Positions 25,965 through 32,684 of a DNA stretch of 32,684 nt are shown one piece after another. Under the pieces are notes generated by a model. That model searched no databases and was not told the DNA's origin. It saw nothing but the letters and a program-made list of their open reading frames with translations. The stretch lies in sequence record AY135739; one strand, given 5' to 3'. Each line of letters opens with the position of its first letter. The first letter of the stretch is position 1. This DNA comes from Escherichia phage Wphi. A program made the translations under genes and the position numbers.

Positions 25965-26236
25965 GTATTCGTATCGAAATTGGCGAACGTTATGTCGTTA
26001 CCAGTGACAGCTTTCAGTTTATTCTCCACGAGAAAAAGAGAGCGGAAAGCGGTAAAAACGCCGGTCAGGAATGGCTGGCGGTGGTTGGTTATTACCCGAA
26101 ATTAAGCCAGCTCGTTTCCGGCCTGATGCATCACGATATTCTGACCGGAAGCGCAAAGTCTTTTGCTGATTTAAACGCGCAGGTTGAGCAACTCAGCAAG
26201 CGTTGTTCAGAGGCTTTTGGCTCATATGGCCGTTAA
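25961..26236 (+). CDS. hypothetical early protein (P2 orf83 position)
   Basis: 91-aa ORF, ATGA overlap with the preceding gene; 3' end overlaps the A start. Confidence 0.45.
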   Translation: MSIRIEIGERYVVTSDSFQFILHEKKRAESGKNAGQEWLAVVGYYPKLSQLVSGLMHHDILTGSAKSFADLNAQVEQLSKRCSEAFGSYGR

Positions 26237-28511
26237 AGCCTCCGGGCGTTTTGTCCCTCCGTCAGCATTTGCCGCAGGCACCGGTAAGGCGTTTACCGGT
26301 GCTTATGCATGGAACGCGCCACGCGAGGCTGTCGGGCGCGAAAGACCCCTTACACGTGACGAGATGCGTCAGGTGCAAGGTGTTTTATCCACGATTAACC
26401 GCCTGCCTTACTTTTTGCGCTCGCTGGTTACTTCACGCTATGACTACATCCGGCGCAATAAAAGCCCGGTGCACGGGTTTTATTTCCTTACATCCACTTT
26501 TCAGCGTCGTTTATGGCCGCGCATTGAGCGCGTGAATCAGCGCCATGAAATGAACACCGACGCGTCGTTGCTGTTTCTGGCAGAGCGTGACCATTATGCG
26601 CGCCTGCCTGGAATGAATGACAAGGAGCTGAAAAAGTTTGCTGCCCGTATCTCATCGCAGCTTTTCATGATGTATGAGGAACTCTGCGATGCATGGGTTG
26701 ATGCTCATGGCGAAAAAGAATCGCTGTTTACGGATGAGGCGCAGACTCACCTGTATGGTCATGTTGCTGGCGCTGCACGTGCTTTCAATATTTCCCCGCT
26801 CTACTGGAAAAAATACCGTAAAGGGCAGATGACCACGAGGCAGGCATATTCTGCCATTGCCCGCCTGTTTAACGATGAGTGGTGGACTCATCAGCTTAAA
26901 GGCCAGCGTATGCGCTGGCATGAGGCGTTACTGATTGCTGTCGGGGAGGTCAATAAAGACCGTTCTCCTTATGCCAGTAAACATGCCATTCGTGATGTGC
27001 GTGCGCGCCGCCAGGCAAATCTGGAATTTCTTAAATCGTGTGACCTTGAAAACAAGGAAACCGGCGAGCGCATCGACCTTATCAGTAAGGTGATGGGCAG
27101 TATTTCTAATCCAGAAATTCGCCGGATGGAGCTGATGAACACCATCGCCGGTATTGAGCGTTACGCCGCCGCAGAGGGTGATGTGGGGATGTTTATCACG
27201 CTGACCGCGCCGTCAAAGTATCACCCGACACGTCAGGTCAGAAAAGGCGAAAGTAAAACCGTCCAGCTAAATCACGGCTGGAACGATGAGGCATTTAATC
27301 CAAAGGATGCGCAGCGTTATCTCTGCCGTATCTGGAGCCTGATGCGCACGGCATTCAAGGATAATGATTTACAGGCCTACGGTTTGCGTGTTGTTGAACC
27401 ACACCACGACGGAACGCCGCACTGGCATATGATGCTTTTTTGTAATCCACGCCAGCGTAACCAGATTATTGAAATCATGCGTCGCTATGCGCTCAAAGAG
27501 GATGGCGACGAAAGAGGAGCCGCGCGAAACCGTTTTCAGGCAAAACACCTTAACCGGGGCGGTGCTGCGGGATATATCGCGAAATACATCTCAAAAAACA
27601 TCGACGGCTATGCACTGGATGGTCAGCTCGATAATGATACCGGCAGGCTGCTGAAAGACACTGCAGCGGCTGTTACCGCATGGGCGTCTACGTGGCGCAT
27701 TCCGCAATTTAAAACGGTTGGCCTGCCGACAATGGGGGCTTACCGTGAGCTACGCAAATTGCCTCGCGGCGTCAGCATTGCTGATGAGTTTGACGAACGC
27801 GTCGAGGCTGCACGCGCCGCCGCAGACAGTGGTGATTTTGCGCTGTATATCAGCGCGCAGGGCGGGGCAAATGTCCCGCGCGATTGTCAGACTGTCAGGG
27901 TCGCCCGTAGCCCGTCGGATGACGTTAACGAGTACGAGGAAGAAGTCGAGAGAGTGGTAGGCATTTACGCGCCGCATCTCGGCGCGCGTCATATTCATAT
28001 CACCAGAACGACGGACTGGCGCATTGTGCCGAAAGTTCCGGTCGTTGAGCCTTTGACTTTAAAAAGCGGCATCGCCGCGCCTCGGAGTCCTGTCAATAAC
28101 TGTGGAAAGCCTGCCAGCAGTGATAATTCGTTACCGGCTCCCACGCCTTCTGAGCACGCCGCAGCAGTGCTTAATCTGGTTGATGACGGTGTTATCGAAT
28201 GGAATGACCCGGAGGTCGTGAGGGCGCTCAGGGGCGCATTAAAACACGGGCTGAGAACACCAAATCGTCAGCAGAGAAACGGAAGCCCGTTAAAAACACA
28301 TGAAATTGCACCGTCGGCCAGACTGACCCGGTCGGAACGAATGCAAATTACCCGTATCCGCGTTGACCTCGCTCAGAACGGTATCAGGCCGCAGCGATGG
28401 GAGCTTGAGGCGCTGGCGCGTGGCGCGACCGTAAATTATGACGGGAAAAAATTCACGTATCCAGTCGCTGATGAGTGGCCGGGATTCTCAACAGTAATGG
28501 AGTGGACATGA
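26226..28511 (+). CDS. A: rolling-circle replication initiator endonuclease
   Basis: Start placed at ATG 26226 (MAVKASGRFVPPS...), 761 aa as for P2 gpA; contains HUH-like HWHMMLF and catalytic-tyrosine region GYIAKYISKN. Confidence 0.88.
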   Translation: MAVKASGRFVPPSAFAAGTGKAFTGAYAWNAPREAVGRERPLTRDEMRQVQGVLSTINRLPYFLRSLVTSRYDYIRRNKSPVHGFYFLTSTFQRRLWPRIERVNQRHEMNTDASLLFLAERDHYARLPGMNDKELKKFAARISSQLFMMYEELCDAWVDAHGEKESLFTDEAQTHLYGHVAGAARAFNISPLYWKKYRKGQMTTRQAYSAIARLFNDEWWTHQLKGQRMRWHEALLIAVGEVNKDRSPYASKHAIRDVRARRQANLEFLKSCDLENKETGERIDLISKVMGSISNPEIRRMELMNTIAGIERYAAAEGDVGMFITLTAPSKYHPTRQVRKGESKTVQLNHGWNDEAFNPKDAQRYLCRIWSLMRTAFKDNDLQAYGLRVVEPHHDGTPHWHMMLFCNPRQRNQIIEIMRRYALKEDGDERGAARNRFQAKHLNRGGAAGYIAKYISKNIDGYALDGQLDNDTGRLLKDTAAAVTAWASTWRIPQFKTVGLPTMGAYRELRKLPRGVSIADEFDERVEAARAAADSGDFALYISAQGGANVPRDCQTVRVARSPSDDVNEYEEEVERVVGIYAPHLGARHIHITRTTDWRIVPKVPVVEPLTLKSGIAAPRSPVNNCGKPASSDNSLPAPTPSEHAAAVLNLVDDGVIEWNDPEVVRALRGALKHGLRTPNRQQRNGSPLKTHEIAPSARLTRSERMQITRIRVDLAQNGIRPQRWELEALARGATVNYDGKKFTYPVADEWPGFSTVMEWT

Positions 28512-28789
28512 TGGCAAAAATTCACGAGGTAAAGCTGCACGCAAAATATTTCGACCTTGTGCTGGAAGGAAAGAAACGCGCAGAGTTTCGGAAAAATGAC
28601 CGTAATTATGAGCGCGGGGACACGTTGATTTTGCATGAATGGGTACAGGGTGTGTTTACGGGGCGAAAGGTTGAAGCCCGGATAACAGATGTTACTGACC
28701 TGTCAGACTGGCTGGAAGATTATGTCTTGCTAAGTATTGAGCTGCTTAATACAGGCGTATATGAGATTGTGAACTGGAAAGAAACTTAG
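28508..28789 (+). CDS. hypothetical protein, ASCH/DUF3850-like (P2 orf91 position)
   Basis: ATG at 28508 overlaps the A stop (ATGA); about 93 aa MMAKIHEVKLHAKYFDLVLEGKKRAEFRKNDRNYERGD... Confidence 0.55.
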   Translation: MMAKIHEVKLHAKYFDLVLEGKKRAEFRKNDRNYERGDTLILHEWVQGVFTGRKVEARITDVTDLSDWLEDYVLLSIELLNTGVYEIVNWKET

Positions 28790-28828
28790 TGAGCCGTGGC
28801 TTGGTATTCAGAAATTAATCATGAAATT

Positions 28829-29023
28829 ATGCATCAGCTCGGCCTTGCTGTTATGTATGAACCAGAGACGGGGATGTCTGGCGGGGCAATGGTTGCCACG
28901 GATGGAGCATGGAACTATTCAGATGAACAGATGGAGCCGTGCACAGCAAAACGGGTGGCTTGGATAATGCACAGAATACCAGGCGAGATACCCGCACCCA
29001 TAAAACTAAAAATATCAAGCTGA
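28829..29023 (+). CDS. questionable small ORF at the accessory-island boundary
   Basis: ORF-track start 28796 is GTG; first ATG at 28829 has no convincing RBS; 64 aa, no recognisable features. Confidence 0.2.
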   Translation: MHQLGLAVMYEPETGMSGGAMVATDGAWNYSDEQMEPCTAKRVAWIMHRIPGEIPAPIKLKISS

Positions 29024-29380
29024 TGGCTATTGTTCAGCGTTTACCAGCGGATTATGGTCAACGAAAATCTGACGCCCGATGAGCTGGTCGGGTGTGCCGA
29101 AATAGTCCGGGATAATTACGGGCGGTTTAACCATATCGGTCAGTCCAGAGTTGCGCCACCACAACGCAGACGATAGAGAACGCCGCCAGTCGTGAAACTT
29201 GTTTTCAGGGCTGGCGGGGTTGAATAACGAGTGTCGCGAGGCGTTAGTTTGAGCTTACAATTAAACCTATTGAAAATTAATGAGAAGTCAATTTTATCTT
29301 TTTCTCGTTAAAGATGGCCACAACTACTAAAACGTGAGAATATCAAGACTTGGCAAAATCTAGCTTTTCCCAACGGGGTG

Positions 29381-29418
29381 TTTCGCTATAATACGCGGTC
29401 GGTTTTTAGGAGGGGTCA
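29381..29418 (+). promoter_or_regulatory. putative promoter -10 element and RBS for the methyltransferase gene
   Basis: Consensus TATAAT at 29387-29392; AGGAGG at 29407-29412, 6 nt before the ATG; no good -35 seen. Confidence 0.4.
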
Positions 29419-30357
29419 ATGCCAACTGTAGTTTCACTTTTTTCTGGATGTGGTGGTTCTGATGCGGGAGTTTTGAACGCAGGTTTCAATGTGCTTATGG
29501 CAAATGATATTTTGCCTTACGCAAGGGACGTTTACTTAGAAAACCATCCTGAAACTGACTACATTTTGGGCGATATCTCAGGGCTCCAGTCGTTCCCTTC
29601 TGCTGAGTTGCTCATCGGATGCTATCCTTGCCAAGGATTTAGTCAAGGTGGGGCAAGGAAGGCAGATAGAAAGATTAATACACTATATTTAGAGTTTGCC
29701 CGTGCTTTGAGTAAAATTAAGCCAAAAGCATTCATTGTAGAGAATGTCTCTGGTATGGTAAGGCGTAACTTTGAGCATTTATTAAAGGATCAATTCAAAG
29801 TTTTCGAAGAAGCAGGTTATACAGTAAGCTCGCAAATTCTGAATGCGTCCCATTATGGGGTATCCCAAGATAGGAAGCGAATCTTTATCGTAGGAATACG
29901 AAAGGACTACGGTATTACATACAAATTTCCAAAACCAACACATGGTGATGGTTTGACACCATATTCCACAATTCGTGATGCTATTGGGCATATGCCTGTT
30001 TGGCCTGTTGGCGAGTTTTATGACGCCGATTTTCATTGGTATTATCTATCGCGAAACCGTAGGCAAGATTGGGATCAGATATCTAAAACAATTGTTGCAA
30101 ATCCTAGACATATGCCTCTACATCCAATAAGTCCAACATTAGAAAAATTGGGACCTGATAAGTGGCAATTTACTTCGGATGCACCAGCTCGTAGGTTTAG
30201 CTATCGAGAGGCTGCTATTTTACAAGGTTTTGGAGATTTAATTTTCCCAGAAACTGAACGGGCTTCTATTAATATGAAATATACTGTGGTAGGTAATGCA
30301 GTACCGCCTCCATTGTTTGAGGCGGTTGCTAGAAACCTTCCAGATTTATGGGATTAA
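29419..30357 (+). CDS. DNA (cytosine-5)-methyltransferase
   Basis: 312 aa with C5-MTase motifs in canonical order: FSGCGG (motif I), PCQGFS (motif IV, catalytic Cys), ENV (motif VI), QDRKR (motif VIII), GNAVPPPL (motif X); AT-rich gene. Confidence 0.85.
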   Translation: MPTVVSLFSGCGGSDAGVLNAGFNVLMANDILPYARDVYLENHPETDYILGDISGLQSFPSAELLIGCYPCQGFSQGGARKADRKINTLYLEFARALSKIKPKAFIVENVSGMVRRNFEHLLKDQFKVFEEAGYTVSSQILNASHYGVSQDRKRIFIVGIRKDYGITYKFPKPTHGDGLTPYSTIRDAIGHMPVWPVGEFYDADFHWYYLSRNRRQDWDQISKTIVANPRHMPLHPISPTLEKLGPDKWQFTSDAPARRFSYREAAILQGFGDLIFPETERASINMKYTVVGNAVPPPLFEAVARNLPDLWD

Positions 30358-31391
30358 GCAGCGATCGCGCTGGAAGGATCAAGGATGATATCTAGATAGC
30401 TAATATTTTGACTGTGATCAATATTATCAGATGCTCTGGTTAAATTGATTAATCTTAGGCGATCAACAAAAATAGCATCGCCTAACTTATTTTTATGTGC
30501 CCACTCACCATCTATCCATCGTAGATCTTGAGGTAAGAAATAATAAGTTGCCCATCGGTGAGCTACGGGGAATTTACTGTAGAGCATCGCAGGTGAGGCC
30601 TCAAGCTGCTTCGCTTCCCACTCTTCTTGAGAACAGCCACACTGAACAAAAGAAATAGGGATGGCATCTCGTTGATCTCCCATTGGATGCCAGGCAATTA
30701 TGTCAAGGCCTCCGTCACCACTATTTCCTCGACTGAAATCTCGTTCTTTGAAGTTCGCTGTGCAACGGATATCGGAAGCAATACTCTTAAATTTATTATA
30801 TAGAGTTCCAGTGTAAGGGGCCGCTTGACCACCAGAAGCCCAGCATGCTTTTATTATGCTACCGCTAGGCATTAGGCTTTCAAAAATAGGTAAACTAATT
30901 AGTTCAAAACTGCGCGTTATCTCTCTTCTGCTCATTATGTTGACATATTTTATGTTAGCACAGATTAGTAAAGCTAAATATAGTCTTTCTAAATGTTCCA
31001 GTGGCTTTTCTGATATATCACGTAACTCTACAGTATCGTTGTCTTCTGATAAAGTAAAAGGGTAACTATCCCCAAATAAATCAATGCGTTGTCGTATGAA
31101 GCCTATCGCATAGCTCCACTTTCTGTCAGTATATGCTCGACTAACACTTCGTTTTGTTCTCTTGCGTACAGGCGTATCATTTTCATCATCAACATCATAA
31201 ACGCCCTCTTCTTCTGCTTCATCTGTTTCAGCTAGTACTGCTTCGGGTTGAGCTTGCAGTGTGCTATATAGGTCTCCTCGACTGAATGACCTGTCGATAT
31301 TAGTTAAGGCCAATATCTCAATATAATCAGCCCATAAATAAGGCTCATTAGAAGGCATTGAATCAAGATTTGTAATCATAATCTCAATCAT
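30354..31391 (-). CDS. hypothetical protein, second gene of leftward operon, convergent with the methyltransferase
   Basis: Start assigned to ATG 31389-31391 abutting GGGAGG (alternative ATG 31377-31379), about 345 aa; acidic tract ETDEAEEEGVYDVDDEND; stop codon overlaps the MTase stop (TTAA); AT-rich. Confidence 0.6.
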   Translation of the reverse strand: MIEIMITNLDSMPSNEPYLWADYIEILALTNIDRSFSRGDLYSTLQAQPEAVLAETDEAEEEGVYDVDDENDTPVRKRTKRSVSRAYTDRKWSYAIGFIRQRIDLFGDSYPFTLSEDNDTVELRDISEKPLEHLERLYLALLICANIKYVNIMSRREITRSFELISLPIFESLMPSGSIIKACWASGGQAAPYTGTLYNKFKSIASDIRCTANFKERDFSRGNSGDGGLDIIAWHPMGDQRDAIPISFVQCGCSQEEWEAKQLEASPAMLYSKFPVAHRWATYYFLPQDLRWIDGEWAHKNKLGDAIFVDRLRLINLTRASDNIDHSQNISYLDIILDPSSAIAA

Positions 31392-32457
31392 CCTCCCTTT
31401 TGCTTCTGATCTGATTTCTAATATTTTTTGACATCTCAAAAATTTCAGATGCAGCCTCTTCATGCTCTAATGTTAATTCTTTAGCTTTAAGTAGCATATC
31501 CCAAACTACTCTTAATTTAACACTAGCTGCGTTTAGTGCTTTATCTAATGCTTCTCTTTCTCCGCTGGTATATAGATATGCTTCATCCAAGTTTGAACTT
31601 TTCATGAGAATTTCAATTGCTTCGGGTTTCTCAACCACTGCTGCAATATCTTTTATTCTTCGAGACTCACCGATGATGGTTCTACCTTGTTGGTCAGGCA
31701 CAAAAAACCAAGAGAATAAACGCTTAAGGTTTTCTTCATTTAAATTTGGGTCTAAAAAATCCTTTTTATCCTGTAGACCTAACCAGTTTGTGATTTTTGA
31801 ATATCCCAAAGCTGTGGTTATATATGAAAATTCCACGTCAGAAGCCTTCATGGGTAAATTAAAAAACTCATGGTCATGCGCGACTTCATATAAGTTCAGT
31901 GCAGTGAGAAGTGTTGCAACATAATGTGGTTTACTCCCAATCTCACGAGCCAGATTTTTTAATACTATCTCTTTAGGTTCATGTGAATAAAAAGTATCAC
32001 ATAACTCTTTAAGGTATTTGGCTTTAGATAATGAGTCCCATTCTTTGACCCCAGTTATATGACGATAACCGATATATCTCAGTACATCCTCTCGGTTTTC
32101 ATAAATGATGCAGGGAAGCTTCTTAGGTTTATTGGTAGTATCATCAATGATTTCTTGCACACCTTTAAGTTTTCTTTTTGGAGGAAGCAGATCTCCATTG
32201 AGCAACTTTACAGCAGCTAAGCGTCTGTTTCCCTCAACCACGATGTAGTTTCCATTGCTTTTTACTGCCAATAAAGGTTCTCCAGGAAAGTAACCTTGCT
32301 GACCGATTGATAGCATTAGATCGTGGACACTTTCGTCATCTAACATTTCCTCAATGACTGTTGCAGCGTTACTGGCATCATTGAGACGAAAGAAACGTGG
32401 GTTTTTAGGGTCAAAATCAAGCTTATTTGTCTCAATTTCTACGATTTTGTTATCCAT
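31384..32457 (-). CDS. ParB/Srx-fold (ParB N-terminal domain-like) protein
   Basis: Start assigned to ATG 32455-32457 with GAGG RBS about 5 nt upstream (357 aa; ORF-track maximum 401 aa); ParB-box-like FDPKNPRF and VVEGNRRLAAVKLL; overlaps downstream gene by 8 nt. Confidence 0.65.
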   Translation of the reverse strand: MDNKIVEIETNKLDFDPKNPRFFRLNDASNAATVIEEMLDDESVHDLMLSIGQQGYFPGEPLLAVKSNGNYIVVEGNRRLAAVKLLNGDLLPPKRKLKGVQEIIDDTTNKPKKLPCIIYENREDVLRYIGYRHITGVKEWDSLSKAKYLKELCDTFYSHEPKEIVLKNLAREIGSKPHYVATLLTALNLYEVAHDHEFFNLPMKASDVEFSYITTALGYSKITNWLGLQDKKDFLDPNLNEENLKRLFSWFFVPDQQGRTIIGESRRIKDIAAVVEKPEAIEILMKSSNLDEAYLYTSGEREALDKALNAASVKLRVVWDMLLKAKELTLEHEEAASEIFEMSKNIRNQIRSKREDD

Positions 32458-32684
32458 CTTAACCTCATGGGATGATGTAAATATCTTTTGGGGGATGCTT
32501 GATAAAACATCCATATTTGATCGTTTGCAGCGCATTTGATACATCGAAGTGTACAAAAATGCTGGGCATAACTCTGCATTAAAATGCATTCACATTCAAA
32601 GCACTATTTTCTCGTTGGACATTTAGCCTAAGAGAGTTTGGACGGCTTTTGGAATTGCATCAAAACCGACCCATGAAGCGGGCG

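Follow-up and report, generated by a model that had tools for sequence, protein, structure and literature searches.

The right-hand end of Escherichia phage Wphi (sequence record AY135739) carries three AT-rich genes that we lean toward reading as a defense module resembling a restriction-modification (R-M) system, with a ParB-fold protein as a subunit of its restriction arm. The window that we analyzed, the whole stretch of 32,684 bases, is a complete P2-like phage genome, from cos to cos, and the genes lie in its last part (29024-32684). They are predicted to encode a C5 cytosine DNA methyltransferase (MTase) and, on the opposite strand, a ParB/Srx-fold protein and a protein of 345 amino acids, which we will call the partner. 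A first-pass annotation of this DNA had described the three genes; the observation is confirmed, and the interpretation placed upon it is partly supported. The genes, with the basis for each, are:

29419-30357, + strand: C5 cytosine DNA methyltransferase, 312 amino acids (open reading frame (ORF) listing, Pfam, PDB match)
30354-31391, - strand: partner protein, 345 amino acids as annotated, or 341 amino acids if the start is at 31379 (ORF listing, uncharacterized family)
31384-32457, - strand: ParB/Srx-fold protein, 357 amino acids, with a start that is supported by the family (ORF listing, family alignment)

The three genes form one module

We gathered related loci via the partner family: looking up the exact protein gave four, and scanning a single genome for each species gave thirteen. 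Every one of the 19 independent loci, which represent Beta- and Gammaproteobacteria as well as P2/186-like prophages, has the ParB gene, then the partner gene, and then a convergent C5 MTase gene. These loci are from Oryzomicrobium, Ramlibacter, Methylotenera, Methylomonas, Gallionella, Sulfurimicrobium, Aquabacterium, Porticoccus, Dechloromonas, Intestinirhabdus, a Raoultella metagenome-assembled genome, and P2/186-like prophages with an Enterobacter-type partner protein. The trio is also found in bacterial chromosomes outside of prophages. In 18 of the 19 loci, the MTase gene is a few to a few hundred bases from the partner gene; in Ramlibacter it is 3.6 kb away.

The MTase is present in 140 of 5,426 complete E. 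coli genomes, and among these 5,426 genomes we found neither an orphan MTase nor an operon without the MTase. Of the 140 genomes, 104 have the window-type operon (with the MTase at 99% identity or above) and 36 have a sibling operon, which is a diverged homologue (with the MTase at 93%). Because all three genes stay together in 19 of 19 loci, as they also do in 140 of 140 MTase-containing genomes of E. coli, we conclude that they are one module and not chance neighbors. The same linkage contradicts one option in the first-pass annotation, which was an independent anti-restriction MTase next to an unrelated two-gene operon.

The genes are also tightly packed. The MTase and partner genes converge tail-to-tail within a single TTAA (30354-30357), so that their stop codons overlap, as the annotation had noticed. 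It had also joined the ParB and partner genes by an 8-nucleotide overlap, which holds if the partner begins at its annotated start (31391), as the ParB stop codon is at 31384-31386. However, the start of 39 members of the partner family corresponds to Met5 (31379); with that start, the protein would have 341 amino acids, and 4 nucleotides would separate its gene from the ParB gene. The ParB and partner genes are tightly coupled whichever start is right.

Across the related loci, the MTase is the best conserved of the three proteins (66-84% identical to the protein in the window, about 70% overall), followed by the ParB protein (51-64%, about 55%) and the partner (41-53%, about 43%). An MTase that is more conserved than the other subunits is the usual pattern for R-M systems. 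A Pseudomonas phage of the Peduoviridae has a third and more remote version of the trio (MTase 63%, ParB 39%, and partner 30% identical), which lies at another position in its genome and has the identical 4-nucleotide convergent overlap. In the sibling operon of E. coli, the ParB protein is 32% identical and the partner is 25% identical to those of the window, while the MTase protein is 98% identical. We considered a recent cassette swap that placed the sibling operon beside an identical MTase, but the MTase alleles of the two E. coli subtypes differ by 7% at the DNA level and track the operon subtype perfectly, so any swap of the operon is old.

Natural knock-outs fall in the leftward operon. 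The partner gene is interrupted by the insertion sequence IS5 in two genomes and by a stop codon or frameshift in another; IS2 lies upstream of the ParB gene in one genome (strain E2); and IS1 lies within the sibling ParB gene in three clonal genomes. Wherever we saw that the operon was inactivated, the MTase was intact. Since the knock-outs are confined to the operon, this is the direction that would be expected under the logic of an R-M system.

A few loci have additional or missing genes. In Ramlibacter sp. (locus L004, 6915-11589), the partner gene is directly followed by vsr, a gene for very-short-patch repair, which is a typical companion of R-M systems that make 5-methylcytosine (m5C), and a 1,044-amino-acid protein without a Pfam match lies between vsr and the more distant MTase (44% identical). 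In a P2/186-like prophage from a metagenome scaffold (locus L006, 10512-12376), a gene of the PAPS reductase family and a D12-class adenine methylase are found beside gpA, along with the trio. Yersinia phage L-413C (locus L022, 207-1199) has, in the same slot, a lone gene for a ParB-like protein of 330 amino acids (34% identical, matching across residues 8-290), with neither partner nor MTase, whose end overlaps orf91. This gene is apparently truncated and looks like a deletion remnant of the module.

A methyltransferase similar to M.HaeIII

The MTase matches Pfam's DNA_methylase family (PF00145) over its full length (E = 9.9e-62) and has the PCQ and ENV motifs; C71 is the predicted catalytic cysteine of the PCQ motif. 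Its match to the structure of M.HaeIII (PDB 1dct, E = 1.6e-48) spans residues 4-307 and includes the target recognition domain. Furthermore, an SRNR...PRH motif aligns with R225, R227, and R243 of HaeIII, which we take to be the residues that contact the guanines of GGCC in the HaeIII-DNA structure. This alignment suggests that the target of the MTase is probably GGCC.

The recognition domain is nearly unchanged in 20 of the 20 loci examined. Between the two E. coli subtypes, the ratio of nonsynonymous to synonymous substitution rates (dN/dS) for the MTase is 0.041, at dS = 0.32. Judged by these comparisons, the MTase is a functional and constrained enzyme with a single predicted specificity across the family. 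And because the trio is kept in 19 independent loci, with a dN/dS of 0.04 for the MTase, the three genes are more than chance ORFs.

The best 25 matches of the MTase in PADLOC were to the DruM (at 1e-110), MTase_II, DrmMII, and oMTase models. Despite the DruM match, we rejected Druantia type II, in which DruM is accompanied by DruE, DruF, and DruG, as the identity of the system: the helicase and the other Druantia genes are absent from the island.

If the MTase is active, then the predicted m5C would probably be open to attack by McrBC or Mrr, and hosts for cloning are best chosen to lack both. E. coli W, which contains this prophage, has none of the genes hsdRMS, mcrBC, and mrr (Archer et al. 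2011), and their absence would allow it to tolerate m5C methylation by the prophage.

A ParB-fold protein with an invariant nucleotide-binding motif

The ParB protein scores below the cut-offs of the standard models (15.3 bits for ParB_N from Pfam, with a cut-off of 26.3, and 30.5 for parB_part, TIGR00180, with a cut-off of 58.45). Its fold matches KorB, Spo0J, PadC, and Srx. The N-terminal domain is of the ParB-CTPase type and contains an invariant EGNRRLAA, which corresponds to the phosphate-binding P-motif (GxxRxxA). It is followed by a helical region that aligns with the helix-turn-helix (HTH) domain of ParB and then by a long helical C-terminus. Proteins with the ParB fold bind CTP, ATP, or GTP, depending on the family (2025 survey, PMC12704722). 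At the level of the superfamily, then, the protein has the ParB-CTPase fold, and it may bind a nucleoside triphosphate (NTP). Thus the annotation's guesses of a C5 MTase and a ParB/Srx fold agree with the matches to Pfam, to M.HaeIII, and to known folds.

In PADLOC, residues 1-151 of the ParB protein match positions 1-158 of the 440-amino-acid model for PD-Lambda-5_A (E = 2.5e-24) and residues 41-327 match the candidate model PDC-M38A (E = 6.5e-25). PD-lambda-5 was isolated in a functional screen, is described as "ParB/HEPN, methyltransferase," and has been validated as giving broad defense against phages (Vassallo et al. 2022). These are the only PADLOC matches of the ParB protein, the first of them to just the N-terminal third of its model, and PADLOC has no model for the partner, so the annotation was right that the trio is not any named defense system.

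ParB proteins are best known from partition, and a putative plasmid partition system is present in about one quarter of P2-like hotspots. This raises the alternative that the module is not for defense at all: the MTase would shield phage DNA from host restriction, while the ParB protein and the partner would maintain or partition the prophage. We give this hardly any credence. There is no ParA-type gene in the island or in loci L001 and L003-L008, and as mentioned above, the partition ParB models score under their cut-offs; for these reasons we rejected a ParABS-type ParB. Furthermore, the module also occurs in chromosomes outside of prophages, and partition would leave its obligatory link to one type of MTase unexplained.

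Another alternative is that this is a classical Type II R-M system in which the partner alone is the endonuclease and the ParB protein is a regulator, similar to a C protein or to DndB, that times or limits the expression of the nuclease. The ParB protein is encoded first in the operon, as C proteins are, it has the HTH-like region, and there is an inverted repeat upstream of the operon. DndB, which is an ATP-dependent regulator from the ParB family that controls the Dnd modification system, offers a precedent (PMC10853773), and Type II R-M systems are known in P2 and P4 hotspots. Nevertheless, we consider a purely regulatory role unlikely. The protein is 357 amino acids long, with a nucleotide-binding motif and many columns that are invariant over its full length; it is better conserved than the putative nuclease (55% versus 43%) and is kept in 19 of 19 loci. 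This exceeds what a repressor would need. Also, in PD-lambda-5 the same ParB domain is fused to an effector, which points to a role inside an effector complex.

A partner that resembles PD-(D/E)xK nucleases

The 345-amino-acid partner had no match in sequence searches of Pfam, NCBIfam, PADLOC, or the PDB, and its PHROGs class is "unknown." It belongs to a large family: we identified 203 close homologues, and an exhaustive profile search found 1,472 clusters at 50% identity. Each member is a protein of 300-370 amino acids that stands alone, with Pfam domains in none of the 10 that were scanned. Pfam gave nothing usable for 40 members of the family or for 10 remote representatives; Mrr_cat was matched by one of the 40 members, at E = 0.13.

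The structural model (predicted local distance difference test, pLDDT, of 90.8) appears to have an N-terminal winged helix and then a C-terminal core that is shaped like a PD-(D/E)xK nuclease, similar to Mrr. After the winged helix, the model resembles MspJI, N.BspD6I, NgoMIV, Bse634I, and Cfr10I, and also SdaI, AgeI, SgrAI, NucC, and EcoRI. A Foldseek search of the model against the PDB gave hits that were below significance.

The invariant columns of the family are E163, GDGGxD at 225-230 (with D226 and D230), D239, Q250 followed by C-G-C-S, K261, E264, H278, D289, R291, and D310-R-x-R. By eye, the pattern FE...GDGGxD...hhhhQ...VDxLxL of the partner parallels the FE helix, GDGGID, VQAK, and VDGERL of E. 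coli Mrr. This likeness is an observation by eye; when the partner family was compared to E. coli Mrr with hhalign, the probability was 13% and the last strand and helix alone were aligned. Also, the lysine of the D...(Q/E)xK motif, which is the catalytic motif of Mrr_cat, is replaced in the partner by an invariant glycine. Given the model and these columns, the partner is probably an atypical PD-(D/E)xK nuclease.

The missing lysine invites the opposite assignment, in which the ParB protein is the DNase and the partner is a catalytically dead, nuclease-shaped reader of DNA that senses the site or its methylation. ParB has been counted among four DNase folds in R-M systems, and operons of "ParB nuclease plus DNA methylase" have been described (Anantharaman et al. 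2013). The winged helix of the partner would also suit a reader, as it is present in Mrr, which is a Type IV enzyme that both reads and cuts. But D226, D230, D239, Q250, K261, E264, H278, D289, and R291 are all invariant and near the predicted active-site strands, which would be unusual for a dead enzyme, and those ParB-fold proteins that have been characterized are mostly NTP switches or kinases rather than nucleases. We regard this assignment as quite improbable.

A proposed mechanism

We propose that the module is cargo of the tin/old hotspot of P2 and that the MTase would mark the DNA of the host and the prophage at a short site, probably GGCC. Because the MTase gene lies downstream of the early operon of the phage (A, then orf91), and given that it has its own upstream region, the MTase might be produced soon after a new cell is infected. 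As the restriction arm, the leftward operon would act on DNA that is not marked. Within it, the winged helix of the partner may read or grip DNA while the diverged PD-(D/E)xK core cuts it. The ParB-fold protein would be an obligate partner that binds an NTP via the GxxRxxA motif and DNA via the HTH-like domain, and that licenses the nuclease on unmethylated DNA. Of this account, the gene structure, the assigned folds, the strict linkage of the trio, and purifying selection on the MTase are established here, whereas we infer that the partner cuts DNA, that an NTP is bound, that GGCC is the site, that the proteins form a complex, and that the module acts against phages. The account combines two options in the first-pass annotation, a restriction or abortive-infection module guarded by the MTase and an R-M system with the 345-amino-acid protein as the endonuclease, into an MTase-guarded restriction module whose nuclease is likely to be the 345-amino-acid protein, with the ParB protein as its NTP-binding partner.

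We are more tentative about the idea that the ParB protein licenses the nuclease by acting as a switch or clamp that depends on an NTP; this specific role is possible, and we suggest it because of the invariant nucleotide motif, the strong conservation of the protein, and the direct fusion to an effector in PD-lambda-5. The boldest version, about which we are doubtful, is that the module founds a class of R-M systems with a nucleotide-driven subunit of the ParB-CTPase fold. The ParB protein would load at unmethylated sites, close as an NTP-dependent clamp like ParB or KorB do, and recruit or activate the Mrr-like nuclease, all of which would be prevented if the site of loading carried cytosine methylation. 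If this were true, then the ParB fold would be a third NTP engine of restriction enzymes, beside the helicase-type motors and the AAA+ GTPase McrB, and the role of the ParB domain in PD-lambda-5 would be explained.

A different account is that the ParB protein and the partner form a latent toxin that degrades DNA, including the host's, once infection is sensed, with the MTase as the antidote or addiction factor that stabilizes the prophage. The ParB domain is shared with PD-lambda-5, which its discoverers describe as a compacted prophage version of R-M plus abortive infection (Vassallo et al. 2022), and the tight convergent packing and strict linkage would suit an addiction module. However, the Pfam and PADLOC searches of the window's proteins found no HEPN domain or other RNase or abortive-infection effector; nothing in the sequence indicates a sensor of phage; and a plain R-M system explains the architecture equally well. 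We consider abortive infection to be very unlikely.

Several observations do weigh against the R-M-like reading that we lean toward, or against parts of it. The assignment of GGCC depends on the alignment to M.HaeIII and on the contacts of that enzyme with DNA. We looked for a depletion of GGCC as a clue to the specificity and rejected it as uninformative: in the phage, the observed/expected (O/E) ratio of GGCC is 0.66, which is the next lowest for a 4-base palindrome after GATC, and in the island there are 6 sites versus 6.1 expected. The bias of the natural knock-outs toward the operon is without statistical significance, as there are about 5 events and the operon is over twice as long as the MTase gene. 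E. coli W is readily transformed and accepts plasmids from K-12, an argument against a strong restriction barrier of the classical kind. The strain has also been described as restriction-minus, in terms of gene content only (Archer et al. 2011). Finally, Box III of the ParB protein has diverged (YRHITGxKxWD), and sequence predicts neither whether a protein of this fold binds an NTP nor which one, with AlphaFold3 likewise failing to predict the specificity (PMC12704722).

The module may nevertheless be of broad interest. Proteins that have a ParB-CTPase fold and act outside of chromosome segregation are a current open topic, and PD-lambda-5 is the one validated defense system with this fold. 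Here, the ParB part is separate from the effector, the module is strictly coupled to a single and probably known methylation specificity, and it is found both in a phage that is easy to handle, namely the P2-like prophage of E. coli W, and in 140 of the complete genomes of E. coli. This makes the role of a ParB switch in restriction directly testable. A function for the partner would also help annotate many genes, as its roughly 1,470 clusters at 50% identity are without a Pfam model.

Slot and boundaries of the island

Region 29024-32684 has matches at 99.9-100% in a prophage that E. coli W, KO11, and LY180 contain, and in about 100 further complete genomes of E. coli. The genes of the E. coli W prophage are in the order integrase, C, cox, B, ..., A, DUF3850 (orf91), a small ORF, MTase (WP_001143634), the 345-amino-acid gene (WP_000570053), the ParB gene (WP_000368931, "ParB N-terminal domain-containing," 357 amino acids), portal Q, terminase, and capsid genes. 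The three proteins of the window are identical to these RefSeq entries. In the window, gpA (26184-28511) and a homologue of DUF3850/orf91 lie upstream of the island. Given the gene order in the E. coli W prophage, the region is the tin/old slot between gpA/orf91 and cos, as the annotation had recognized. This slot is a hotspot for defense genes according to two independent studies.

The G+C content of the island is 39%, as compared to 52% for the whole window, which bears out the description of its genes as AT-rich. The annotation had placed the island at 29024-32684. The match to P2-like phages without the island covers 29024-29249, so these first 226 nucleotides are conserved P2 backbone and the island begins near 29250; from there on, the placement stands. 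The annotation had also supposed that the promoter of the operon and any further genes lay beyond the window. Instead, the genome is complete and the last base of the window is at its cos end, 227 nucleotides upstream of the operon are visible, and the next gene is Q, which in E. coli W is 415 base pairs beyond the start of the ParB gene. The smaller features of the island are:

29250..29418, + strand: left end of the AT-rich island, together with the DNA upstream of the MTase gene (from the limit of the match to island-less P2-like phages)
29387-29392, + strand: possible -10 box, TATAAT (by eye alone; not reported by the consensus scan)
29408-15, + strand: Shine-Dalgarno sequence of the MTase gene, AGGAGGGG (reading of the sequence)
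32458..32684, - strand: upstream region of the ParB-partner operon, to the cos end, 227 nucleotides (reading of the sequence)
32575-32588: inverted repeat TGCATT-AA-AATGCA, about 120 nucleotides upstream of the ParB start codon

It is conceivable that the inverted repeat is an operator. Scanning for promoters and terminators gave hits that were no more numerous than in shuffled sequence, and no promoter was identified in the upstream region of the operon (32458-32684).

Just before the island, the window has six single-base insertions within about 270 base pairs (28780-29050), relative to the prophage of E. coli W. As a result, the homologue of DUF3850/orf91, which in E. coli W is a single gene for 150 amino acids, is divided between two ORFs (28475-28789 and 28796-29023); the insertions are either errors in the record or a true pseudogene. 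Separately, GATC is by far the most depleted 4-base palindrome in the window as a whole, with 30 sites versus 129 expected under a Markov model (O/E = 0.23).

Comparison with known systems

Our literature search found no paper that names or tests the trio. The annotation had nonetheless overstated its novelty: Table S5 of Rousset et al. 2022, which lists the contents of P2 hotspots, includes both this arrangement and its sibling as "DNA_methylase + hypothetical + ParBc," and PD-lambda-5 has been validated on the same ParB module. (Both the arrangement and the sibling are absent from the table of tested systems in that study.) In Table S5, the partner WP_000570053 is in 16 of the 27 loci with ParB and MTase, and the others have a different accession, for example WP_001350076. 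The same table includes "DUF262 + DNA_methylase + HEPN" operons, which, like operons described by Anantharaman et al. 2013, are also trios of a ParB-fold protein, a DNA methylase, and an effector; in these, the effector is a HEPN RNase and not PD-(D/E)xK-like, and the operons have been described computationally only.

Type II R-M systems with m5C MTases, such as the HaeIII/BspRI type (GGCC) or EcoT38I from P2 hotspots, are similar in that an M.HaeIII-like MTase gene adjoins a convergent nuclease-like gene. Also as in these systems, the MTase is better conserved than the nuclease-like protein, and one window-type locus has vsr. In contrast, classical Type II enzymes have no counterpart of an obligate ParB-fold protein with a nucleotide-binding motif, and the nuclease-like protein of the window falls outside the described endonuclease families and has an atypical catalytic motif. 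The obligate ParB-fold partner, which is kept in every one of the 19 loci, suggests that the module departs from the Type II scheme in its classical form.

The Type IV enzyme Mrr of E. coli has the same winged helix as the partner and a similar layout of the Mrr_cat region: the FE helix, GDGGxD, a strand that ends in Q, and a C-terminal VDxxxL. However, Mrr cuts modified DNA and acts alone, and as described above, the partner lacks the QxK lysine and hhalign gave a probability of just 13%.

GmrSD-type enzymes (GmrSD, BrxU, and SspE) have a DUF262 NTPase of the ParB/Srx fold that is fused to a DUF1524 nuclease. In these enzymes and in McrBC, as in our proposal, a nucleotide-driven subunit or domain controls a nuclease, but they are modification-dependent and have no cognate MTase. 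Searches of Pfam, PADLOC, and NCBIfam found no match to DUF262, DUF1524, or McrB in the proteins of the window.

The most similar validated system is PD-lambda-5. It too is from E. coli, and in it a DNA methyltransferase goes together with a protein bearing the same ParB N-terminal domain. In PD-lambda-5, however, protein A (roughly 450-500 amino acids) has its ParB domain fused to a HEPN-type C-terminus, whereas the ParB protein of the window has another helical C-terminus and a separate effector. The genes of PD-lambda-5 all point the same way and its protein B is an adenine MTase similar to Dam, whereas the window has a C5 cytosine MTase and convergent genes. Cloning of PD-lambda-5 needed a host with mrr deleted (Vassallo et al. 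2022). The partner had no match to the PD-Lambda-5 models, and PD-Lambda-5_B was not among the best 25 PADLOC matches of the MTase, while genuine B proteins match that model at 1e-103 to 1e-118. We did identify genuine PD-lambda-5 loci in two phages, Marinobacter phage AS1 and also Vibrio phage ValB1MD-2, in which A matches most of the length of the model; in Marinobacter phage AS1, residues 3-404 of A align to positions 4-381 of 473. In Vibrio phage ValB1MD-2 (locus L029, 2923-5362), A is split into a ParB part of 252 amino acids and a C-terminal part of 265 amino acids, followed by the Dam-like MTase. This split is a natural precedent for a ParB module that stands apart from its effector. 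Since the ParB N-terminal domain is the sole part that they share, the system of Wphi, as judged from these comparisons, is not a member of PD-lambda-5; it appears to be a parallel build on the same ParB module.

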